A stretch of DNA of 62,549 nt, the filler included, from Squatina squatina (taxonomy: Eukaryota), in NCBI GenBank assembly GCA_031763465.1. It is 3 parts of 3 records of this genome, joined end to end, with 100 filler letters (N's around TTAATTAATTAA, not from the genome) between each part and the next. Parts side by side here need not be neighbours in the genome. Positions count along the whole stretch, not along the records: positions 45,299 to 62,549 come from JARFOE010000194.1; 2 more parts are not named here. One strand, 5' to 3'. Below the pieces are notes generated by a model. It worked only from the letters and a program-made list of their open reading frames with translations, was not told the origin of the DNA and made no database searches. This document shows positions 19,512-62,549 of the stretch, piece by piece. Position numbers and translations under genes: made by a program. Numbering within the stretch: position 1 is the first letter of the stretch; each line of letters starts with the position of its first letter.

Positions 19512-19696
19512 GTAAGTTTAAAACAAATGTTTTTCATTGAATTGTTAAAGGAAAAAATGTTTGTAAACTGTAATATAAGTTTTAGGTGCATTGTCTNNNN
19601 NNNNNNNNNNNNNNNNNNNNNNNNNNNNNNNNNNNNNNNNNNNNNNNNNNNNNNNNNNNNNNNNNNNNNNNNNNNNNNNNNNNNNNNNNNNNNNNN

Positions 19697-21822
19697 AGTG
19701 GGAAAGGATATTGCTGCTCGAAGAACTTCCTTCTCTCCTCAATCTCTGGAATCATACTTTCATCACACGTTCCCTTTATCTTTCCTTGCTGCACAAGGTC
19801 CTCCTCCCGTTGGCGCTCAAGTACAATCTCACGCTGCATCTGCATCTCAGCAAATTGATTATTTTTAACTTTTGGCGAAGAGGAAGGAACAGGCTGCAAA
19901 ATAAGTGGCCGAGTTTTGATCTCTACATATTCTTCAGAGCAAGCAAATTTTATAATGCCTCTGGCCTTTCTTAGACTTTCCTCCCGTTTCACACCTAGAC
20001 GGATCTCTCTTTCTATAGGAGTTTCTGTTTTTTCATACGTCACAGGCATAGAGCTTGAAGTTTCATTTTGAAATACGGTGTCAGTTAAATTATCACCTTC
20101 AGATCTACAAGTTGAGTCATCTAGACCAGAATCACTGCCTTCCGAGCAAAGACTATGATCTGTTACATTCAGGAACAAATTCTGGTCTAAATCCCCCATT
20201 CTGCCATTATCCTCTTGTGACGCTTGTATACCCTGCTTTTTAGTTAGATTTGCTGAACTTCTCCAGTATTCCACTTCATCAATTTTGATTCCTGCTGCTG
20301 TGCTGTTTTGCACTGTATCTTCGGAGAATGTTAAAGATGCAGAATGTGGATAGCTTGCCTCCCTTTTTACCAGTTTAGTAACGGAGGGGTCATCTTTTTT
20401 CTCTTTAATAATACATTTTGCCACTGCTTTATTTTTCTCCTGCTTGACTGGTGGCCTATGACTGTGGGTTCTGTTGATCTCTTCCAGCATCAACCACTGT
20501 TTGCGGGCAGCGGCAAAATCCACGTGGTCTGTGTCCACATGTTCACTCCCTGATGCTTCAGTCTTGTTTTCTTCTCCTTGGATTGGTTTAGCAGACTGAG
20601 GCTTAGTATTCCTGGACTTACTTTTCACTTCATCTTTCTGGTTAGGGTTATCTTTTAGTGATCTCTGCTGCAGTTCCATTATTTCTAACACAAGTTTCTG
20701 ACTTAGAGAAGCCAAACTTTCAGCTGCCCCATTTTCCTGAACTAAGTCACGATCACGATGATTTGTGTTTGAACGTTTCTTGATGAGTTTGAATTCATCT
20801 GTGGGAGCAGATTCTAATTCATCTGCATTTTGCATTGGAACAGTGATAGACAAAGATCCGTTCTGAATGGTAGATGGAATGGTTTCTGACACTTTTTGAT
20901 ACATCATACTTTTGTTTGATGTTTGATTACCGTTTCTGGCTAAGTAAGGTTTTGGTTCTCCATTCAGACTAATGGCCGACAGACTGGTCAAGCCTTTATC
21001 ATCCTGTGAGTTGGCTGGAAGCGTTGAACTATCTATGATCAATTTACTTAAATCGATCATTGAGAAATTTTCAACATTTTCTTCATTTTGACCAAATTTT
21101 GAAGAGGTTTTTAGTATTCCTTCTTTTAGCTTGATTACTGATGTATTTGGCGTTGAATTTTTTCTTGACCTAGTGAGTGCAGGAGCAGCCGTTTCTTTTC
21201 CAACTTCATTTGTAGCTTGTAAGGTCGCCACCATTTCTTCCTGGTTGACCTCGGCTACAACTGCTCCAGTTCCAAACACTGAAAGAGGTTTGCTGGCAAT
21301 GTCCTGGCCTGCTACCTCTAAGTTAGCAGCTGCCTCGCCAAGTACTGTACCTGAAGAATCTTTGAAGTGCTCTTTGTGAATAATGGCATAAATCGCTTCT
21401 GGCATTTCATAGGATGAAGGCACGGCTTCATACTCCAAAGGTACTTGCACTGCGTGATCTAAATCTTCCGTTTTGAAAACCTTACCTTGAAGTTCCTGTT
21501 TTATGTCATCTGTATTGTCATTATGATTTCCATCAGTGGTTCCTTTTACATTTTCTGCTGTTAATCTGCAAGTATTCAAGATTTGCTTTAGGTCCTTTAA
21601 CCCAGGGTATTTTCGTTCAGCCGTCACATTAACCTTCCTTTGGTGAATAGTGACATCTTCTGTTTCCATTGTAATAGCTTTGGGCACATATACACTTTCA
21701 GATCTTGAAATGTCCTCACTGGTTTCCATAGTTACAGTTGGTGAACAAGTATCTCCCACGTCAACAACATTTTCTTTCAGTTCCTCTCCATTTTTTGGCA
21801 CCTTGGCCAGAAAGCCACTTTG
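19697..21822 (-). CDS. Giant exon (>700 codons, 3' end in gap) of a MISP/AKAP2-family protein
   Basis: Acceptor tttgtctttgcag ending at 21823; stop-free frame; motifs VDFAAARKQWLMLEE, DSGLDD, ETPIEREIRLGVKREESLRKARG, VEIKTRPL, MQREIVLERQREED shared with MISP/AKAP2; first in-exon ATG at 21729. Confidence 0.85.
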
Positions 21823-21929
21823 CTGCAAAGACAAATATACACATAAATTACTAAAATGTTTGCAAGTTAGTTTGATCATACTTTCAAGAATCAACACGAT
21901 ACATTCATTGCACAAACTGTATAGAAATT

Positions 21930-22165
21930 TCCACCTTTCGGATCAGATATTAAACCGAGGCCCCGTCTACCCTCTCAAGTGGGCGTAAAAGGTCCCAGGG
22001 CCACTATTTCGAAAATGAGCAGGGGGGAGTTCTCCCTGGTGTCCTGGCCAATAGTTATCCCTCACACAACAAAACAAAAACAGATTGTCTGATCATTATC
22101 ACATTGCTGTTTGTGGGAGCTTGCTGTGCGCAAATTGGCTGCCGCGTTTCCCACATTACAACAGT
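21930..22165 (+). mobile_element. Deu-domain SINE (SacSINE1/AmnSINE1-like)
   Basis: TTTCGGATCAGATATTAAACCGAGGCCCCGTCTACCCTCTCAAGTGG..GTAAAAGGTCCC..CACTATTT matches the recalled DeuSINE core. Confidence 0.75.
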
Positions 22166-22392: not shown

Positions 22393-23016
22393 TCACATAA
22401 TAGAACAGCAAATGCATTTTTGTTTGTCATTTGTACCTGACACAGAGGGGTCATCAAAGTTTCCAACTCCATCCATATGTCCATCAGAGTAATTTTTGTA
22501 GGGAGAATGATTTATAGTTGTATCTTGACCTGAAATTAAAACAGATTTCTTTGGGAGAGAGCTATCTCCTGCAGTTAGATTTATTGTGGCATATGATGTT
22601 TTATGTATCTCATCCCTAGTTGAAAGAGGGACTGGATGAAATACTGGGGTAGTGTGGCTATTTGCTTGATGTGGTGACACCTCATCATCGTCGTCATCGC
22701 TGATCATAACCAGTTCTGCTCGGATAGCTCCTTCGTACCCCAAAACTTTTTTGGTTTCATTTTCGTCATCGACACTGTGGTATCCCATGAAGACCATAGT
22801 AACTGTTTCCTCAGTGTTAGTCGTAGAAGGCAAGGAACGGACAACGTTAAACTTAACGTCTGTTTCTTCAGAAGCAGAGGAACATCTGCCATCGTGCTCA
22901 AGCTCCGAATTGATAAACACAGCCTCGCGGTGGCTGTCCCTTTGTTGGTGGCACGGAATCTGTACTGAATTCAGCTTATTTTCAGTTAATGGTGACTCAT
23001 TACTTTGTTGACTCTG
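22393..23016 (-). CDS. PALMD: Palmdelphin large exon, 3' part, read through to a CaaX-ending stop
   Basis: DVKFNVVRSLP..ETVTMVFMGY..GYEGAIRAELVMISDD..DDPSVS matches human PALMD DVRYNIVHSLP..PVTMIFMGY..GYDGIIHAELVVIDD..EDPSLT; internal GT donor after 22437; read-through ends KQKCICCSIM*; 5' boundary approximate. Confidence 0.88.
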   Translation of the reverse strand, partial: QSQQSNESPLTENKLNSVQIPCHQQRDSHREAVFINSELEHDGRCSSASEETDVKFNVVRSLPSTTNTEETVTMVFMGYHSVDDENETKKVLGYEGAIRAELVMISDDDDDEVSPHQANSHTTPVFHPVPLSTRDEIHKTSYATINLTAGDSSLPKKSVLISGQDTTINHSPYKNYSDGHMDGVGNFDDPSVSGTNDKQKCICCSIM

Positions 23017-24769
23017 GCTTTGTGTGGAGCTCGGAGCCCATGATTTCCAGGATGGAAATGATGGCCAAGTCCATGAGAGACCTTGTGGACCCAGCTGTGG
23101 TGCTTCGAGTGATGGGTGATGTTGCAGCTTCCATTGCAGCGCAGGCAGAAGTGACCCAAAGTCTGAGTTGTTGCAGTGGAAGCGCAGACTGCTGGCCGCC
23201 GTGGCTGGGCTAACGAGTGTGGGAGGGGGCTTGCAGGGTCTCACAGCGCTCCAGCAATCTGTCCCACAACAGGAATGCCGAGGCGCCACCCCGGGGGAGC
23301 GGCAGTGGGTCAGTGGAGCACGACCCTGCTGTCCTCTCTCAGGGTGACTGCGTTCGTCCTCCCACCCCTGCCACCCCACCAGCGCCCTTGCTGTTGGCCT
23401 GTGAGCCAGCCAGCCCAGACTGCTGCCGCCCATGCCGAGATGGTGCAGTCTACAGCCGGGTCTTCTGGGCCCAGAGCTGCTCGAGGTTGTGCTCCAAGGC
23501 CATCTGCAGTCTCCCCCACTGTCAATGAACAGCTTCCACCAGCCCTGCTGCAGACACTGGGGTAACAATTTGTAGGAGCACTAGAGTGGGAAAAGGAACA
23601 CAAAAGTGATGGTGAGTGACAGAGGGAAGGTGAAATGTGGGACTGTTGGTGAAAGGGGAATTGGGGCCGAGGTTATGGGCTGTCTGAGCTGTAGCCTCCC
23701 CTCCTCTTACTCTTCTCGGCCTTCCTCCTTCTCCTTGTGTTCCTGCTCCTCGACTTCTCACCTGAAAGGTGGTGGCATGGGCTGTTCCCTCATGAAAGCA
23801 AGATTGTGCAGCAGGCCACCACAAATCTTGATACCTTTCCAACTGAGAACTGCAGGGCTCCTCTACAGCGTGCCAATGGTCTGCTCCATCACATTTCTGG
23901 TGGCAGCAAGGCTCTCATTGTGTGCACGCTGCACCCCCGTGTACGTGGGTTGCGCACCGGAGTCATGAGCCATGCCGTCAGCTGATAGCCCTTGTCACCC
24001 AGTAGCCACCCTTTGGTTTGCCGTGATGGCTGAAATACAGCTGGCACAGTGGACTGTCGCACACTAAAGGCATCATGACTGAATCATAGAATCATAGAAT
24101 GGTTACAGCACAGAAGGAGGCCATTCGGGCCATCAAGCCCATGCCGGCTCTCTGCAAGAGCACTTCAGCTAGTCCCAATCCCCGGGCCCTTCCCCGTAAC
24201 CCTGCAAATTTTTTTCATAGAAACATAGACTGCTGCCAGCACACTGTGCATTGGCCTGCTTGAATCACTGCTTCTGGTCACATGCCAGCTGGATCTTGAG
24301 GGAGTGGATTCCCTTTCGATTGTATGGCAGTGTTACAGGGCCCACAAACTGATGTGCATGCAGTCAAGGGCAGCCTGCACCATGGGCAATCGTGCAATTC
24401 TAGCAACACCATGTGCTTGCTCCACCAGCTGGTCTCTGATAAGAGAAAATGAAATGTATTTCGTTCTCTTGGAATGGAGAGCCTCAGTGACGTCCATTGC
24501 TCAACAGTGGGCAGCAAACTGCGAGATGTTGCAAATATTCCAGCCTGGAAGGAGCCAGATGCATAAAAGTTGATCACCACGGTCACCTTCACAGTCACTG
24601 ACAATGTGATCTCGCCCTGCTCTGAGGTTACAGTTATGATGGCAGCAGGTGGCAGATTGAGTGAGGAGGTCCTTAGTGAAGCGCAGACGTCTCACACATT
24701 GTTCCTCACTGAGGTTCAGGTAGGAGAATTGCTCACTGACTACCCTGGGCAGATGGCTTCCAGCTGAGA
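23017..24769 (-). mobile_element. Degenerate autonomous-type Harbinger transposon (transposase on -, probable Myb/SANT partner remnant on +)
   Basis: RRLRFTK, VKVTVVINFYASGSFQ, ARLPMVQAALDCMHI, YNRKGIHSLKIQLACD, HDAFSVRQS, GWLLGDKGYQLTAWLMTPVRNP; several frameshifts. Confidence 0.85.
24082..24227 (-). mobile_element. CR1-type 3' tail nested in the Harbinger transposase
   Basis: (ATCATAGA)n tail; GACTG duplicated at 24077-24081 and 24228-24232; splits the GSS-HD transposase motif. Confidence 0.75.
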
Positions 24770-24869
24770 NNNNNNNNNNNNNNNNNNNNNNNNNNNNNNN
24801 NNNNNNNNNNNNNNNNNNNNNNNNNNNNNNNNNNNNNNNNNNNNNNNNNNNNNNNNNNNNNNNNNNNNN

Positions 24870-25263
24870 ATTACGGGGTTATGCCTCACAATTCCTTCAC
24901 TTTTAGTCATATTTTCTTGAATCATTGGTTTAGAACCTGTCTGCTCAGTGAGTAACATTTTAGGAGAGTGGGGGTTATTATAGGAAATTGAATAAACAGG
25001 TGCATGACATGCTGCAGAAACATTGGCTTGATTTTCACCAGCCTGCTGCAACAATGCCTCCACCTCTTCATGAGTCATGTCATCTACGCCATTCTGCACC
25101 AGCCCTCCATCATTGCGCAAAGCATACACTGATTTGACCCCATCTTCATAGACTTTAACACCTTTGTTTTTTATTTCATCAACCGTCACTGGCACAGTTG
25201 AGAGAACGGTGCTTTCTCCAGTCTTCATGTCCTTTTGAACATTGATTTCCACAGCAAACAAAG
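24870..25263 (-). CDS. PALMD: Palmdelphin large exon, 5' part (runs into gap)
   Basis: ttaacag| LFAVEINVQKDMKTGESTVLSTVP..GVKVYEDGVKSVYAL..EEVEALLQQA vs human LYAMEIKVEKDLKTGESTVLSSIP..GIKVYDDGQKSVYAV. Confidence 0.92.
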
Positions 25264-26434
25264 CTGTTAAGAAAACATGTACATAGATTAGTAAAAACGA
25301 TTTACTTATTTACCATTGGGATAAAACTTTTGGGATTATGAAAGAGCTATTAATGTGATTTACCAATAATCCAAAATGATCACCCATTGTCTTGCAAAGA
25401 AATATGTGTATTCTCTTTGCTGTCAAGTTTGGTTACTGACTCCTCCCATTTCCCAACTCCCCACCATGACTGATCAGCCAGCGAATGCAGATAACACAAA
25501 CACATTAACGTTCTGCCATAAGTCTGGCAGGGAAAGTGATCATATTCTCTGTAACTACACCAACAGGGAATGGACACCACTGGAATGGCCAGTCATTAAA
25601 ATAATAGTAATGATGGTTTAGCCACAGATATATTAGCTTGCTTGACACCCACAAAACAGGAGTCTTGTACTAGAATGCCTCAGTGCAAACTTTGGCCCCA
25701 AATGTTCTCAAAACCAACAGAACTCCTTAGGTGGCAGTCCAGCTAGTGGGGGCAGAAAGTGAAGCAGGACTTGGTATTCCTGGGACGCCTTCCCAAAGAC
25801 AAGGTCATTCATGTTTTTGTGTTGGGGTAGAAGCAGGCAGAACATCTGTCTGGCCCCCAGAGGCCTGACAATCAACCAGGAGGCAAGGCCTGTGGGATAG
25901 CATAATCCACTGGATTTCCAACTGCTCCCATTCACTAAGCACTGATCACACCGAACAATAGCAAGATATCCCATTCCAGCACCATGGAGCAGCGGACGTA
26001 GGGCGCACAATGGTTTCCAGGCAGGCTTGTTATAATAACCTGAAAGATCGTAGAAGATCGACTCCTGCAAAATTTAAATTGGCCTTCTGCTAAAGAAGGG
26101 GGCAGATTCCACTGGCAATAATACCTTTTAAGAAGATCCTGGTGGCTTCTGCTAAAAGTGAATTACCAGCATCGCATTTGGTGCTCCCCCTCCAGCTGGT
26201 ACACAAGATGCACCACAACTGGCACATGTGGCCGCCGGATTAATTTACATGCACCCCACTCTGCCCTGACCGCAGATACTCTGGTGGGGTCACCTTCTCA
26301 GTACACTGGCGGATTGTGGTTCCCACACCGCCACCACAGTTAAGGTGGAGTGGATTGGAGATTTGCTGGGCTTTTGCCTCTTTGTGAATATCTATCAGGG
26401 GGTTGTATTGGGACTGGTCAACTCAAAAAGCATT

Positions 26435-27066
26435 TGGGGCCCCAATTCGGCTGCGCCCAAATGGATTGCAGCATTTGGGGCCCCATAGTTGGGGCCGGTG
26501 ACGCGGCCTTCATGACACAGTCATCATTCTGGCCCACTGTAGCGTGGCAATGCTAAATCAGCATTGTCACAGCGCTGACCCGGCCAACGCCACATCACTG
26601 CCGGGTTACGCCAGCAACGCAAGCCATGCTGCCAGTGCAACTGCGCATGCGCAAGCCACGGCCCCGCCCCCGCCCTGCCTTAAAGGCAAGGGCCGCTGGT
26701 TTGCGGATTGGTCAGGGATCCAGGGCCCACTGGACCACCAGGGACTGAGAAAATCGCTGAAACATGTGCTGGCACAACAGAGAGCATGCCGGCAAGGGGA
26801 CCCAGACTTTTTCCTGGGGCGATCGGTTGCCAAACATTGGCCGACAAGATAGTCGGCCGATGTTNNNNNNNNNNNNNNNNNNNNNNNNNNNNNNNNNNNN
26901 NNNNNNNNNNNNNNNNNNNNNNNNNNNNNNNNNNNNNNNNNNNNNNNNNNNNNNNNNNNNNNNNACTGGTGAGCTGCCTCTGTGGCTACAATTGCCACCC
27001 ACAGCTCACTGGCGGACCTCATGAGGCGCGTGCCCCATTCTGGTGCGATCCAATTTCTTGGCCCCA
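26435..27066. mobile_element. GC-rich MITE-like element (spans a gap)
   Basis: Ends GGGGCCCAATT.. / ..AATTTCTTGGCCCC; internal CCTTAAAGG motif as in the 568-1284 element; a similar block lies at 39535-40025. Confidence 0.5.
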
Positions 27067-27706
27067 ATATTGAAGTTGAACAACTGACATTAAAAACATT
27101 GTAAAACAGAAAACTGTCCTGGGTGCATAGAGGTCCTATGATGTTGATCCCACCAGAGTATATGTTGACAGAGGAAAGGTGCTCAATTTAAATGTGCTGT
27201 GCAGACACCCACACCACTGGGGCCACATCTCAGGTGCTCGCCTTCTCTCAGAGGCCACATATTGTGGTGACTGATGCCAGTTCACAGGGGAGAAAAGTTA
27301 CGAGGAACCTGTGGAAAGGAGATATACATGCATTTTTACTGTCCCAAGGCTATATTGGCCCAAGAATATGTGCATTGTACAAATAGGAAACTATAAACAG
27401 AAAAGTAGTTTGTTGAATGAGCCCAATATATACTTCTTGCACATGTGGGTAATTTCAACCTAACTCACCTGGCGAGAAACCCGTGGGATCGGGTAGAGCA
27501 CTGTTTTTCCCATCCAGACAAACATTACTTTCCATTGACTTCAATAGTAAAAGAAGTTTCCTGGTGGGCAATTTAGGTTAAAAGAGCCTACCATTAACTC
27601 AATTGTGCTTTCACTTAGAATGTCCAGCTTATCTGGAGCCAACTGTTAATATTCCGCAATAGTATTTCTGTTTTAGTAACGTATGCCCGTACATCCTTGG
27701 GTTTAC

Positions 27707-27837
27707 CTGAGAATATTTTGTTCCAGTTGCTTAGATTGATGCTGATCTTCCTGGTGCTGCTTTTTCATTGCCTCTTGTTCTTGAGGATATATGGTGGCCA
27801 CTCCCTCCAGGAGCCATCTTTCTCTCAAACTCTTTGA
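27707..27837 (-). CDS. PALMD: Palmdelphin exon 3
   Basis: ag|SKSLRERWLLEGVATIYPQEQEAMKKQHQEDQHQSKQLEQNILR|gtaaac vs human KKALREKWLLDG..EQEEMKKQNQQDQHQIQVLEQSILR. Confidence 0.92.
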
Positions 27838-28623
27838 CTGTTCAGAACAGCACAATGTTAGAATCTGTATTTCATTAACACTGCCTATTTTCATCACGTT
27901 CTTTTTCATTTAGCAAGTCTTAATAAACTTCCTGCTTCATTTTGGGATTGAGTTTAACAACAATGATTTATTTTCTTGGCTGGTCCAGAGGGTGAGGGCA
28001 CTTTGTAAACCTGTCGAACCCGGGTTTCAATCCACCTCAGAACACTGGGTTTAAAATCTCCTCTAATGGCTGCAAATATTATAGAAACATAGAAAATAGG
28101 TGCAGGAGTAGGCCATTTGGCCCTTCGGGCCTGCTCTGCCATTCAATANNNNNNNNNNNNNNNNNNNNNNNNNNNNNNNNNNNNNNNNNNNNNNNNNNNN
28201 NNNNNNNNNNNNNNNNNNNNNNNNNNNNNNNNNNNNNNNNNNNNNNNNAAATAAACAGCACACTGGAGTCACGGCACTCTGCGCAGGTTCTGGCCTCATA
28301 TGACAACTGACACTTTTAAGATCAATGCAGGGGCACGCGCCTCTGCTACACTGTCTTGTAGATTTCATTTCCTCATTTTCAACTTCGATTATTTCTTTAA
28401 GCAATAAAAAATATACAGTAATACCAGCATCTAGGGTGAAAGCAAATTTGGAGGATGCTATGGCTACAAGCAGCAGGACTGCTGAAGGAGAGACTTCAAC
28501 TGACTCCTGTCTGCAAGGGAGACTTAACTAAAGTTGAAAGTCCTTGAAGCCTGTGACCTGAAAGTGTCCTTCACACACAAACACACACACACACAGCTGG
28601 GATTGCAAATTCAGAGGACTTAC

Positions 28624-28668
28624 CGTGATGGCTTGTAGCCTTTCTTTCAGCAGATGAGTCTCTTCCAT
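28624..28668 (-). CDS. PALMD: Palmdelphin coding exon 1
   Basis: MEETHLLKERLQAIT|gtaagt vs human MEEAELVKGRLQAIT. Confidence 0.92.
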
Positions 28669-29799
28669 CCTAAGAATCAAAACAGAAAAAAAGAGCAGAA
28701 GTAGAAGGGTGAAGAGTACGAACCGGAGAGGGAGAAGCGAGTGCTGGCGTGTGCTGCAGCTGGGGTGGAGAGTATTCCTGGCTTGTCAGGGCGGCTCCCA
28801 GCAGATGATGGCACTGGCCTGACTCAGGCAGGCACATGTGATGAAGGGGTGCAGGCACGGATTGCTGGCATGGCTGTCACGTTTGAGTGACAGACCATAT
28901 GTTCTCCTTGGCCCAGAATTATTTTGGTTGGATTGTTTCAGGAGGTGAGGCAACGTTCAAACATCCTGCGTAAACATGACAAGACTCTTTTTGCAAACTA
29001 AAGCGGTTAGGAATGTCGTATAAACGTATAGGACAGACGTGCTACGGAGGAACTTTATGTAGTGCCATCATGATATGATTAATATGTCAGATTCATAAAG
29101 GGCGATTTTAATTTTAGATGCACAATGAAAGGGGTGGCGGATAATCGGAGGCTGAAATGCACGCGCCGTCTGCCCTTTGTCACCATACGAGCCTGGAGTC
29201 ATTTGAAGCCAGGGTCTCATTTGAATGCTGCTGGTGAGCTGCTGATGTCAAACATGGCACCCCGAGGCAGCATGTCGGCTGGGGTGGTCAAGAAATCAAC
29301 CGGCTCCTATGTGTGTCAAGAGGGCTTCGCACGAGCCAGCAGTGGACCAAAGTTTTAAAAGTTTTTAAAAAGTGCAGCAAACTTGACTTGCTACCAGTAG
29401 CCCCTATAAGGACCCCTGGTTAGGTGGTTGAACGTCAGTAGCTTGGCCATCTCTTCATTTTCTTTAGCTTGCTCCAATTAGAGCTTTTCTTGTGTTTTTT
29501 TTAAAATCCTGTTTCTCTCCCAGAGGTACTGGCTCATTCTTGTAAGCAGTTCCACAGATGTTAGAAACCCACCAGAACTTTGCTCAAGTGGGGATTCATC
29601 ATGTGTGAGCCAAAATAGGGAGTGTTGGCGGGCTGTTTAACCGTAAGGGGCATCACAAATGAGCCAGATTTTGCCCTCACCTTCCAGCAGGGGAACAGAA
29701 ACCCCAGTTAATCCCCCAAAGTATCCGGAGACCAACTATACTGTCCCAACTTCTACTCCAGCTAAGATAAACTAATTTTGAACGAAGCAGAGATATTGT

Positions 29800-58395: not shown

Positions 58396-58760
58396 AATTC
58401 TTGGGGCCCTGAATATCAAGAACAGTGTCTCCCCCTACAGCCCTCCCCCACCCCTAATGCATTAGAACAGAAAGGTGTAGTAAAATTCATGAACAAATAG
58501 GCACGTAGAATGTTTACACACTGCATTAATAATAAAGAANNNNNNNNNNACTTATTTTTAGGCCTCAGTTGAGACCGAGGCTTAAAAAAAATAGAACCAC
58601 TTAAAGAATTCTCGGGGCCCTTGGCAGCAAGAATATTCAGGGACCCTCCACACCCCTCCTTCACGTCCCTGTCCCCACCCTCAATTAAATAGAAACGCCT
58701 GGTGCAATGCATGAAGAAATAGGCCCTAGAATGTTTACACACTGCATTAATAATAAAGAA
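58396..58760. repeat. Diverged direct duplication (~210-220-bp period) across a 10-N gap
   Basis: GAATTCTYGGGGCCC and TAGAATGTTTACACACTGCATTAATAATAAAGAA each occur twice. Confidence 0.75.
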
Positions 58761-59720
58761 AATCATATCACAATATACTACACATAAATTAAACTGATAC
58801 ATGCATTATGGTATGTTTTACCTCAGGCCCCATATTTGGTTGAGGCACCTGGGCACAGGCCTGTCTGTCAATCTGTACCTATATTTAAATATATTATATG
58901 ATTGTATGTTACACCTAACCCCTCAAACCTGCAGCCATGTTTAATGTGCCTTTCCCCTTTGCCAGTGCAAGGTCTGATTGGGGTGGGGAGGAGTCAAGTC
59001 TGGGCCAGATATTAATGTCACAGGAAAGAGAAAACCGGTACATCCAGGCTGCACAAGTGCAGCACTAGGGCAGAGAGGGGATAGGAAAACTTGCCCTAGT
59101 GCCTCCAAGAGAGGAGAGAAAATTGAAAATTATGGAACTGAATAACAGTACCTCTTAAAATTAGTAAAGCACATTATAATGGTTATATGTATTATATTTT
59201 CAAATGAAATGTTAATTTCTTCCACATTTGTCTATTTTCTGAAGAAACACAATTAATAAAAGTTTAATCTTTAATATTTTTTGCATATTCTTGGTTTATC
59301 CCAACAGGTTAATTTATTGTAAATAATTTCCCTCCCTATTGAGCATTTGCATCAATGTGGTGGTGTAGTGTACGTTAGTCTGGAAATTACCTCGAAATAC
59401 CTCCAGAGTGATGGAACATTTTCACAACAGATTTCTAACTCTGCTACAATGTATTTGCATATAAAAATATCACAAATAATATTGCAGAACCACAAAATAC
59501 TTTGAAAACTTAAACACAAAAGAATACAAGCAGACTTATTTTTAAACACAGTGCCATCTTTAGAACTCTAAGTACAATTTGTAGCAACAAGTGCTGAGCT
59601 TTCATGTTTTTTCTTTCCTGAATATTTTCTCTTCACTAATATTAGGTATGTCTTTACCAGTGGAAAAACTGCAAAATGACCCAGTCTTGTCAAAGACTGT
59701 GAATTTTTTAAGTCTGCGGG

Positions 59721-59900
59721 CTAATCTGAATATGATCTCCTTAATGTGACGCTCATATAGTCATCGTCTATGTCTTCACAATCATTGTTGGTTACCGTTG
59801 GCCTGCTTGGCTGCTGTTTGTTGTCCTGGTTATCAGTGTCAGATATATTTTTCAGGATTATATTGATCTGGTTTGGTATGTTGACTCTAGACTTCCTCTG
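59721..59900 (-). CDS. Cytoplasmic-tail last exon of a TIGIT-like receptor
   Basis: tgttttccag|QRKSRVNIPNQINIILKNISDTDNQDNKQQPSRPTVTNNDCEDIDDDYMSVTLRRSYSD*; basic start; DCEDIDDDYMSV resembles TIGIT DCAELHDYFNV; AATAAA downstream at 59318-59313; absent from the ORF track. Confidence 0.65.
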   Translation of the reverse strand, partial: QRKSRVNIPNQINIILKNISDTDNQDNKQQPSRPTVTNNDCEDIDDDYMSVTLRRSYSD

Positions 59901-60029
59901 CTGGAAAACAATTTAAATATGAAAGGAAATTCAGTCAAGGAAATTATGAATTGATGTTTTATCAAAGGGTTTCTGATATGAGAAGTCTCCTTTCTACAAA
60001 GGAACATTAAGGGGGGAGAAAAATAAAGG

Positions 60030-60148
60030 ATTCATAGAGACACTAGAGAAAGGGCTGAAAAGATTCACAAGGATTATACCAGAACTGAGCGGATATACTC
60101 ATCAGAAAAGGCTGAACATGCTGGGGCTCTTTTCTCTGGAAAAGAGAA
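60030..60148 (+). mobile_element. CR1 fragment
   Basis: RFTRIIPELSGYTHQKRLNMLGLFSLEKR. Confidence 0.7.
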
Positions 60149-60248
60149 NNNNNNNNNNNNNNNNNNNNNNNNNNNNNNNNNNNNNNNNNNNNNNNNNNNN
60201 NNNNNNNNNNNNNNNNNNNNNNNNNNNNNNNNNNNNNNNNNNNNNNNN

Positions 60249-60860
60249 AGTGTGCGACTTACAACATGATGCCCTGTCTGTGGCCGGACGCCTGCTGCAC
60301 ATTGAAGGAGTGGAACCCCCTTCAATTGCCTTGCGTGCAGTCAATGACACCCTGCACCCAGGGGAAGCCAGCCGTATGCTTGCTCCGCCTGCTTCGCTCT
60401 GTCCATTGGCGAATGAACTGTAGGTGTTGTTCCTGGTGTACAGACCCTCGGTGACCTCCCTGATACAGCAGTGTATAACAAATTGCGATGTTGCTAATAT
60501 CAACTACTGCAATCTGAAAGGAGCATGTGGCATCAAAGCTGAGGGCCATGATCACTTTGACAGCCACAGGCAGTGCCGTCCATGCCCTGGTTTAGGGCTC
60601 CAGTTGTGGCTGCAGCAGGGGACATAGCTCGGTGACAACATCCTCGGTGAAGCAAATGCACCTCACACATTGCTCCTTGGTGAAGTTGTGGTATGAGAAT
60701 TGCTCCATGAAGGCCTGCTGTGGGTATGGCCCCCTGTGTAGTGCCCTCTTTCTCCCTCTTCTCCCAGATCACCTGTGGATTTGGAACCTGCCCCTAATTC
60801 CTGTCCCCCAGGTAAAAGGCAGCATCATTGCATCCTCTTCTACCTGAGAGGCGCCACGGT
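60249..60860 (-). mobile_element. Degenerate Harbinger transposase, 5' half
   Basis: AVKVIMALSFDATCSFQ..ISQFVIHCCIREVTEGLY..AGFPWVQGVIDCTQ..VCGRPQT. Confidence 0.85.
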
Positions 60861-61215
60861 TTCAGGTTTTGTTTTTACCAGGAGGATTGCCAGACTCCTG
60901 CAAATTAGCATCCAATGAAAACCTGGAATTGAGAGCCTGGGTATCTTACTCTTTTAATGCCTAGTGAATGCAATCTCGTAGAACACACAAGTTAGGAGTG
61001 GAAGAGTACAAACTAAATTTATTTGAATATTAAAGCAACTTATCCAGTCTGGATTTTTTTCAAAAATTGTGAATTAACTGAATCAAAAAAATAGCCAGTC
61101 CTACAACCTTTTGTTCATCACATTAAAAAAACTCTATAAGCTTCAGTATTGTGTTAGTTTATGTCGTTCAAAGCAGTTTGTTAATGTAGGTTAATTTCTA
61201 AAACTCTATCTTTAC

Positions 61216-61545
61216 CTTTTACATCCAAATATATTTTGCTCTCCAGTTTTCCAGCTGGAAAAATATGAAATATGCACGAATACCAGCCTCTGTCTGATTT
61301 GAGAGCTTCTTTGATTGTGATTGTGGAATGTTGTCCCTTGACTTCCATTGTTATTCGCTGGTTGTGTAGAAATGTTTTGTTCGCGGATGCACTGTACACA
61401 GCCAGTTTAGTTTTGTTACTGGATTTCTCCCATTCAACTGATACCATTTTGACACCTTTATCAGAAAGACCACAGTGTAAGGCAACTGAACCACCCTCCA
61501 CAACGGTTACATTCCCATTAGTTTTAAGTTCTGTTGTTTGGACAT
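61216..61545 (-). CDS. IgV exon of a PVR/nectin-family immunoreceptor, TIGIT-like
   Basis: 330-nt phase-1/phase-1 exon (ttctacctag|...|gtaaag): ELKTNGNVTVVEGGSVALHCGLS..VEWEK..LAVY..DRGWYSCIFHIFPAGKLESKIYLDVK vs human TIGIT TIETTGNISAEKGGSIILQCHLS..VNWEQ..LAIC..DTGEYFCIYHTYPDGTYTGRIFLEVL. Confidence 0.85.
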
Positions 61546-62549
61546 CTAGGTAGAAAAGAAAGAGAATTAAGATGTTATAAATTCACTTTGTAATAGCTTT
61601 TATAATAATATCCAGATACAATACTACAAATACAGCAAGTACTAAAGTCACAGAAAGACTCACATTTAAATAGAACACCTTTCACATCATCAGGATGTCC
61701 CACAGTGCTTCACAGCCAGCGAAGTACATTTGAAGTGCTGTTGTTTTGTAAGGCCGTGAATTTCCTCAGGGCTGCTCCAGCTCTGTTGTAGCAACATCGC
61801 TGTAAACCCTGTTTATTTGTGTAACTTCAGTTTCTGTCGTACTTCCAGCGAAGATATTACAGTGGAGCAAAAGCAGCTCCGAGGAAATTCTTGGCTTAGG
61901 TAATTTCAGCAGCCAATTTCCACAGAGAAAGTGCCACAAATAGTAATGAGATAAAAATCTGCATTTGTGGTTTTGGCTGTGCAATGAATGTTGGCTAGGG
62001 TACCAGGAGAATTTACTGCTTTTTTGAAAAACTACCACTGGATTTTTCACATCAACCTGAAGAGCCTGCTGTGAGCCCTTCTCCTCCTCTTCCTCCTCCC
62101 TCTTCTAGTGACTTGTCCTGCTCTGTTCATTCTCCAAGTCATGTTGTATTCCAAGGGGAATGCCTACTGCTGTACCCATGGTAGTTGACAATGGGCACTA
62201 ACGAGCTTGGTTTTTCAATGCAACTGTCTAGGCACAAAGAAAATCCACTTGAGATTTAGCGGCTGGTCAGCACCCATGGAACTGTAACGCAGCATGCGCC
62301 AGTGGCCAGGATGGTGCCCTCCAGAGCTGACCCTGCTGGAATTTGCATGGTCCGTAAGTGGGTATCTCACTAGCAGGGGGCAACAACCACAAGTGCCACT
62401 TTGGGCGCATCTCTGGTACCCACCCACCCCATGTTGCCATGGGGGGCGGGGTTTGATCAAGAGGACCAATCTAACTCAATTGCCAACAATATTTTTCTTT
62501 CAATGCATCAGTAGTCCAAAGCACTTTCCTGGCCTGGGCCCCACTGGTG

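Follow-up and report, generated by a model that had tools for sequence, protein, structure and literature searches.

A probable TIGIT orthologue in Squatina squatina and signs of a gene-converted twin in several sharks

Human TIGIT (PDB 3UDW and 5V52; 244 aa) carries a single IgV domain and a cytoplasmic tail in which an acidic patch is followed by a tyrosine motif. In the available text of PMC10439114, inhibition by human TIGIT is lowered by Y225A or N227Q, but not by Y231A, and accumulation at the synapse is abolished by Q56R. For CD226 (DNAM-1), which has a PVR-family V domain, the accessible portion of PMC9263721 describes a Y-x-N tail motif that binds Grb2 and requires its +2 Asn for capture. 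With regard to age, a 2026 survey of the origins of human IgSF members, in the parts of it available to us, assigns TIGIT to its amniote group (PMC13262535, Table 1 and Table S2), and PD-1 and LAG-3 are assigned to mammals in the same table. The placement of PD-1 and LAG-3 in mammals suggests that the method dates fast-evolving genes late. Reportedly, LAG-3 was recently dated to the jawed-vertebrate ancestor. PD-1 has recently been traced to that ancestor as well, in a paper whose accessible text has TIGIT in a reference only (PMC12151841). The available text of another study follows nectin-1 and nectin-3 back to shark, regards PVR as placental and leaves TIGIT untraced (PMC7286890), and the accessible portions of PMC12065747, PMC5413580 and PMC10295997 hold nothing on fish TIGIT. 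No title on a chondrichthyan TIGIT, or on the gene pair described below, came up in the literature searched, which was mostly non-subscription; a report may exist. Here we describe two exons of Squatina squatina that, judging from sequence, we read with a probability of about 0.78 as the chondrichthyan orthologue of TIGIT, in the copy that we call type A. TIGIT orthology in sharks would imply a jawed-vertebrate origin of the gene, shifting it from the amniotes to the jawed-vertebrate ancestor.

Both exons lie on the minus strand of the window (the whole stretch of DNA analysed, 62,549 nt), and their ends were set by six-frame translation and splice-site reading. The IgV exon of the TIGIT-family receptor (61216..61545, 330 nt) has an AG acceptor and a GT donor in phase 1-1 and sits at the end of the interval where the initial annotation had reported a single IgV exon. 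That report is borne out: the exon matches Pfam V-set with E 7e-10, is predicted to fold as a V-set domain with pLDDT 91, bears three N-glycosylation sequons, and finds its best matches among 177,635 PDB sequences in nine human TIGIT entries (43.2-43.9 bits), against 37.6 bits for nectin-1 and 34.2 bits for CD226. Identity to human TIGIT is 27-28%, with a TM of about 0.8. The terminal exon (59721..59900, phase 0) encodes a type A cytoplasmic tail of 59 codons plus stop, in which RKSRVNIPNQINIIL precedes EDIDDDYMSV and the stop; the stretch DCEDIDDDYMSV is contained in this exon as well (59900..59721, minus strand). Splice-site reading gives an alternative acceptor 3 bases downstream (exon start 59897), and this tandem CAG-CAG acceptor corresponds to isoform pairs with and without one Gln in two Chiloscyllium species, so that the membrane-to-tail junction is presumably spliced in those species. 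An AATAAA at 59313..59318 (minus strand), about 400 nt past the stop, is a candidate polyadenylation signal. After the stop (59712-59723, minus strand) the frame runs on as PAD, comparable to the QPAD with which the Heptranchias tail ends, and the Mustelus tail stops at the same position as that of the window.

Both exons are genuine parts of a shark gene. They stand on separate contigs flanking an assembly gap of 100 N with undefined true length (60149..60248), and repeats abut the gap on either side: a LINE end (59977..60148, plus strand; LGLFSLEKR), which we take to be of the CR1 family, and a decayed transposase-like relic (60249..60750, minus strand), which we call Harbinger-like on resemblance only. 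Neither has a Pfam match, and both are intronic. The initial annotation had seen no leader or transmembrane exon, and none is present in the contigs flanking the two exons; we infer that the gap contains the transmembrane exon (phase 1 to 0). A hydrophobic stretch near 61657 was discarded as a leader or membrane exon, as a stop lies between it and the V frame and no orthologue leader matched it, and three upstream ATG..GT leader candidates were unlike orthologue leaders. At 58500-58760, some 30 bases are duplicated either side of a 10-N gap (58540-58549), which fits a local assembly overlap.

Whether the gene was already annotated had been left open; RefSeq already contains predictions of it under loose names. 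Orthologues are present there for many sharks and rays, mostly as 'TIGIT-like', with some as 'CD226 antigen-like' or 'nectin-1-like'. Since these predictions exist, the present result is a reclassification together with an unremarked variant, and no new kind of system. A search with the V exon returned nine proteins among 103 candidates, all from sharks and 57-78% identical (five named 'TIGIT-like', two 'CD226 antigen-like' and two uncharacterized), and a profile search returned 21, comprising 20 elasmobranch proteins and one from a teleost. The latter, of the zgc:172122 type and the sole non-elasmobranch profile match, was considered as TIGIT and rejected, falling outside the TIGIT clade in the 86-row tree described below. 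Type A orthologue models are 209-235 aa long and consist of a leader, one IgV domain, one membrane helix and a tail; direct orthologues with a type A tail include XP_067896693.1 (Heterodontus, 'TIGIT-like'), XP_067848415.1 (Heptranchias), XP_041067622.1 (Carcharodon, 'CD226 antigen-like') and XP_078088121.1 (Mustelus). The window IgV domain is 65-78% identical to such named RefSeq elasmobranch models, whose names are automatic and inconsistent, and it reads IFP where these keep T(F/Y)P; for the tail, identity to these models is 69-75%. With 67-75% identity to type A shark tails among the matches listed (P0003-P0012), the tail exon that had been proposed is also upheld; the Cys of its 'DCE', part of the original resemblance, is unconserved in rays and bony fish. 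RefSeq uses the name TIGIT outright in bowfin (Amia), toad (Bombina), axolotl (Ambystoma) and turtle (Emydura), and 'TIGIT-like' in sturgeon; a Callorhinchus protein is also among the single-IgV matches (in the best 150 of 746).

Those 746 matches came from an HMM of 11 shark sequences run against 1.84 billion representatives, and the best 150 were used. From the V-exon, profile and HMM searches we hand-picked 86 V domains as tree rows, excluding multi-repeat and unrelated Ig proteins. The row labels mammal, mouse, marsupial, teleost, 'CD96-like', 'CD200-like' and most of CD226 reflect our own recognition; 20 proteins of the HMM search were looked up, and the one 'CD96-like' row that was looked up has the database name 'nectin-3-like'. 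All outgroup rows derive from shark-seeded searches, and the trees contain no tool-named CD96, PVRIG or CRTAM and no shark CD226. In the 86-row tree the 16 chondrichthyan rows form a clade (100/98) that is sister to 25 bony-vertebrate TIGIT rows with joint support of 97/92, and CD226, CD200-like, nectin and other groups lie outside the two. A resampled tree of 58 rows supports chondrichthyans plus TIGIT at 98/96, and both trees broadly follow species order. The initial annotation had named phylogeny and database searches as its check, and these favour TIGIT through the two trees and the top PDB match; the AU test tempers them, as it does the larger claim of a true orthologue of jawed-vertebrate age, which is the best reading by trees and tail profile and stands beside CD226 and CD96-like sisters that the test does not reject (p 0.267 for each).

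Other measures of the V domain are likewise close. The shark profile scores TIGIT at 49.6-51.7 bits and mouse CD226 at 49.3, nearly a tie; Foldseek ranks nectin-1 first and TIGIT seventh for the window domain and does not discriminate between them, and in the ESM Atlas clusters named for CD200, nectin, TIGIT and PD-1 all fall within 0.94-0.96, again with no discrimination. The sturgeon link sequence has TIGIT as its top PDB match, at 54.7 versus 32.7 bits. Taken alone, the V domain makes a TIGIT placement suggestive, not decisive. The unrejected AU topologies and the near tie with CD226 both favour a chondrichthyan-specific, single-IgV paralogue within the PVR/nectin family, such as a duplicate related to CD226 or CD96 in which the other domains were lost and whose tail only looks like that of TIGIT; so do the RefSeq labels 'CD226 antigen-like' and 'nectin-1-like' on some members and the missing ligand-face Gln and lock Gly (see below). 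We regard such a paralogue as quite improbable. Both trees favour TIGIT with starred support and broadly in species order, every type A model has one V domain, and the tail, considered next, is homologous to that of TIGIT and not to that of CD226.

In hhalign comparisons, a profile of 16 type A tails matched 11 ray-finned TIGIT tails with probability 85 (E 6e-6, 61 columns), in an alignment spanning both a juxtamembrane R-I-x-x-P-x-x-I/V stretch and the tyrosine motif. The same profile reached 58.5 (17 columns) against 13 tetrapod-type tails, 0.4 against four CD226 tails, and at most 0.45 against six other groups, CD226, CD200-like, nectin and type B among them. When 11 shark-only tails were used, the values were 69.7 (ray-finned) and 8.7 (tetrapod-type). 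CD226 nearly ties with TIGIT in V-domain profile score and differs from the shark gene in its two IgV domains, its non-homologous tail and its own clade in the tree. On an HMM of 24 bony-vertebrate tails the window tail scored 10.9 bits, which exceeds all 18 control tails (best 6.9) and was reached by one of 500 shuffles. Individual tails vary widely on this HMM: that of Mobula scored 25.1 bits (0/500 shuffles) and the Heterodontus type A tail 2.6 bits (41/500 as high), while 10 of the type A set of 16 score no higher than the best control and several shark-only tails are at control level. The tail supports TIGIT membership independently of the V domain.

Around the tail tyrosine, the shared core reads acidic-[D/E/N]-Y-[F/M/L]-[N/S/T]-[V/I], and the motif can be followed from EEDIDDYFNV in sturgeon through NNDYFNV in Mobula, where DYFNV is kept exactly, DNYMNV in Mustelus and EDIDDDYMSV in the window to HDYFNV in turtle and mammal. 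The ITT-like Y-x-N (human Y225/N227) is incomplete in the window: the Tyr is present and the motif reads YMSV. An Asn at +2 occurs in five of the 16 type A tails, in all 11 ray-finned tails and in 12 of the 13 of tetrapod type; for the +6 Tyr of the ITIM (human Y231) the corresponding numbers are 0, 0 and 10. Taken on its own, the Tyr fits a loose ITIM pattern in five type A tails out of 16, and that of the window is not among them. Ray-finned TIGIT (Amia XP_066555176.1; Acipenser XP_033864398.2, 'TIGIT-like') has the same architecture as in sharks and a tail homologous to type A over its length, with one tyrosine motif and no +6 Tyr; unlike the window gene, it keeps YxN (11/11), the ligand-face Gln and an extra Cys pair. 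Because ray-finned tails, including that of the RefSeq-named Amia TIGIT, lack the +6 Tyr, an ITIM is not a defining feature of TIGIT outside tetrapods. These comparisons suggest that the ITT-like Tyr, and not the ITIM, is the old signalling core of TIGIT, and an ITT-first motif series would inform the still unsettled mechanism of human TIGIT signalling. The description of the window gene as a checkpoint receptor holds in part: the TIGIT family is its best reading, whereas with no ITIM and with an ITT-like motif that lacks the +2 Asn (YMSV), 'checkpoint' denotes a role deduced from descent and not from motifs that are intact.

The ligand face of the shark domain also departs from that of human TIGIT, in which motif definitions follow the available text of PMC10439114 and PMC9263721. 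The key T(F/Y)P is found in 15 of 16 chondrichthyan rows, the window being the exception with IFP, a form also present in 3 of 21 bony-vertebrate TIGIT rows. All 21 bony-vertebrate rows and the chimaera have the Gln of (V/I)(S/T)Q, and none of the 15 elasmobranch rows does; the site is Ser in the window and Leu or Met in the 14 others. The lock Gly of AX6G is absent in the window, where the region reads AVYSASAN. In comparison with human TIGIT, then, the window gene lacks the ITIM Tyr, the +2 Asn, this Gln and this Gly, and several sharks add a tandem twin. An extra F-strand Cys occurs in 17 of 21 bony-vertebrate rows and is absent in chondrichthyans. The corresponding Cys pair (W-x-x-C, Y-C-C) marks TIGIT from ray-finned fish to turtle (P0036-P0178, non-mammalian TIGITs) and is absent in mammalian and chondrichthyan rows. 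A complex prediction of the window IgV domain with a Heterodontus nectin-like V domain, run without alignments, gave a score of 0.25 against a mark of 0.34. Separately, the shark and skate 'nectin-1/2-like' proteins P0112, P0131 and P0038 have ITIM-like tails (IVYAVL, TVYAGV, TVYADV, LVYASL) and are candidates for a PVR-like ligand or for a separate inhibitory family.

The initial annotation had looked to linkage with ZBTB20 and DRD3, and neither is among the genes recognised in the window. The neighbours are instead a Reeler-domain gene, palmdelphin (PALMD) and exons of two PAP2-family genes, which we take to be FRRS1, PLPPR4 and PLPPR5, with a presumed human position of 1p21. Human DRD3, ZNF80, TIGIT and ZBTB20 lie within 580 kb at 3q13.31, and CD200 and NECTIN3 in the wider 3q13.13-q21.2 interval, according to the accessible text of PMC9893219. 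As assembled, the window has a PLPPR5-like exon some 14.7 kb away from the tail exon, as would be expected if a lineage-specific translocation had genuinely brought the gene beside PLPPR5, PLPPR4, PALMD and FRRS1. Yet of 16 PALMD rows, five lack a TIGIT-like counterpart, and in all 11 comparable reference elasmobranchs with both returned, PALMD and the TIGIT-like gene are on different contigs and chromosomes (in clusters of several members the contig record may belong to a different one; for Mustelus and Rhinoraja both clusters have a single member). Between the last PLPPR5-like exon seen and the tail exon there are thirteen gaps, and a motif query found no later PLPPR exons in the window. We hold a translocation to be very unlikely, and the neighbours (PALMD, PLPPR4/5, FRRS1) are probably a scaffolding artefact. 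Since PALMD and TIGIT-like genes are apart in 11 of 11 genomes, gene order across the 43 N-gaps of this 44-piece window is untrustworthy, and PLPPR5 synteny was dropped as evidence against TIGIT orthology. Other adjacency-based findings from the same assembly may be affected (17302-45055 versus 59721-61545).

PALMD itself illustrates the state of the assembly. Its exons are squeezed into about 6 kb (22396-28671, minus strand); one of them shares 92% identity with Pristiophorus and 88% with Heptranchias. The window yielded no match for residues 16-41 and 87-171, which indicates that the assembly drops exons, and a gap together with some 1.7 kb of DNA resembling transposons breaks the gene between residue 302 and residue 343. 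Downstream of its CaaX-type ending is a 786-codon frame (19582-21942, minus strand) with an N-run at its end; its match to AKAP2_C is weak and falls below cut-off (E 2e-4). The frame may be an alternative last exon of the PALM2-AKAP2 kind or a PALMD companion gene. In Stegostoma and Rhincodon, the chromosome with the TIGIT-like gene also bears a two-V gene named 'nectin-1-like', which groups weakly with CD200-related rows (68/60, 58-row tree) and has nectin-3 and CD226 as best PDB matches, with CD200 lower. As a weak CD200-like chromosome marker, it makes conserved linkage no more than compatible.

Six sharks (Heterodontus, Carcharodon, Cetorhinus, two Chiloscyllium and Stegostoma) have a second gene, type B, whose leader, helix and tail all differ from those of type A. 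A fused Stegostoma model reads B then A, which points to a tandem order. Within species, the A and B IgV domains are 94, 97, 91, 90, 86 and 76% identical, compared with 55-71% V identity between the Heterodontus, lamniform and carpet-shark groups. After the V domain (membrane plus tail) the pattern is reversed, with A-B identity of 18-27% in the five pairs aligned and identity between species of 60-64% for A-A and 56-64% for B-B. The A/B label changes five times on the V tree, no better than shuffled labels, and the post-V regions separate cleanly; at the protein level, ectodomains cluster by lineage and membrane and tail regions by paralogue, as in gene-converted pairs. The pair thus bears what appears to be the signature of gene-converted receptors, with V homogenisation that is probably recent for Heterodontus and for Carcharodon; in carpet sharks, whose two Chiloscyllium species have B rows that pair together, it is probably older. 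After its V domain the Callorhinchus protein is 40% identical to Heterodontus B and 22% to A, which suggests, without proving, an old duplication. Two YENV motifs are present in each of the four type B tails examined, the second as S-x-Y-E-N-V in three. Word-based searches, which are weak evidence here, gave no type B model for Heptranchias, Mustelus, Scyliorhinus, Rhincodon, Hemiscyllium or rays.

The existence of twins raises the question of whether the window is itself a composite, with a type B V exon joined by scaffolding across the gap to a type A tail. The two exons stand on separate contigs, and repeats abut the gap left and right; within a lineage the V exons of A and B are indistinguishable; the fused Stegostoma model has B ahead of A; and this 44-piece window is missing exons from other genes. 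On the other hand, the exons have the order and strand expected of one type A gene, the window yielded no leader, membrane or tail exon of type B, and the want of a type B model in Heptranchias and rays means that Squatina squatina may have A only. We judge such a composite unlikely; it would leave the assignment to the TIGIT family unaffected.

On the reading of the window gene as a type A TIGIT orthologue, its product would be a type I receptor with a short leader, one IgV domain, one uncharged helix and a tail, some 60 residues long, whose single Tyr lies in an acidic patch. By analogy with human TIGIT and CD226, it would be borne by T/NK-like lymphocytes and bind a nectin-family ligand in trans through its F-G loop key; clustering would then let a Src-family kinase phosphorylate the tail Tyr. 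This Tyr would be the ancestral ITT-like site, and the ITIM Tyr six residues later a gain of the lobe-finned/tetrapod line. With YMSV in place of YxN, poor Grb2 docking is predicted, and type A may act as a weak or damping partner, competing for ligand with its tandem twin. Type B, with a near-identical IgV domain and two YENV sites of the Grb2 type, the latter of which has ITIM-like surroundings, is predicted to dock Grb2, and gene conversion of the V exon would hold both twins to one ligand. We infer the sign of the A and B signals from human TIGIT and CD226. As a tentative history, to which we would give somewhat less than even odds, TIGIT is of at least jawed-vertebrate age and started with an ITT only, the tandem pair arose before the chimaera-shark split, repeated conversion kept the V exons alike while the tails differed, and the elasmobranch ligand face was remodelled.

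The A/B pair and its divergent tails are new here. Together with the motif comparisons they point to a shark variant of TIGIT without an ITIM, with a remodelled ligand face and, in several sharks, with a gene-converted twin. The twins amount to a natural swap, in which one ectodomain is joined to different tails. Their closest parallels are presumably the gene-converted paired receptors Siglec-5/14, Siglec-11/16, PILR and KIR, which, like the shark twins, lie in tandem and combine homogenised ligand-binding domains with signalling ends that diverge. Set against DAP12-type pairs, the shark twins differ in that neither has a basic residue in its helix (none among 15 type A and five type B or B-like helices), and the absence of Lys or Arg from both argues against an activating/inhibitory design of the DAP12 type. 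If the tentative history given above is right, the A/B pair would represent the TIGIT/CD226 balance in a one-locus form that does without DAP12.
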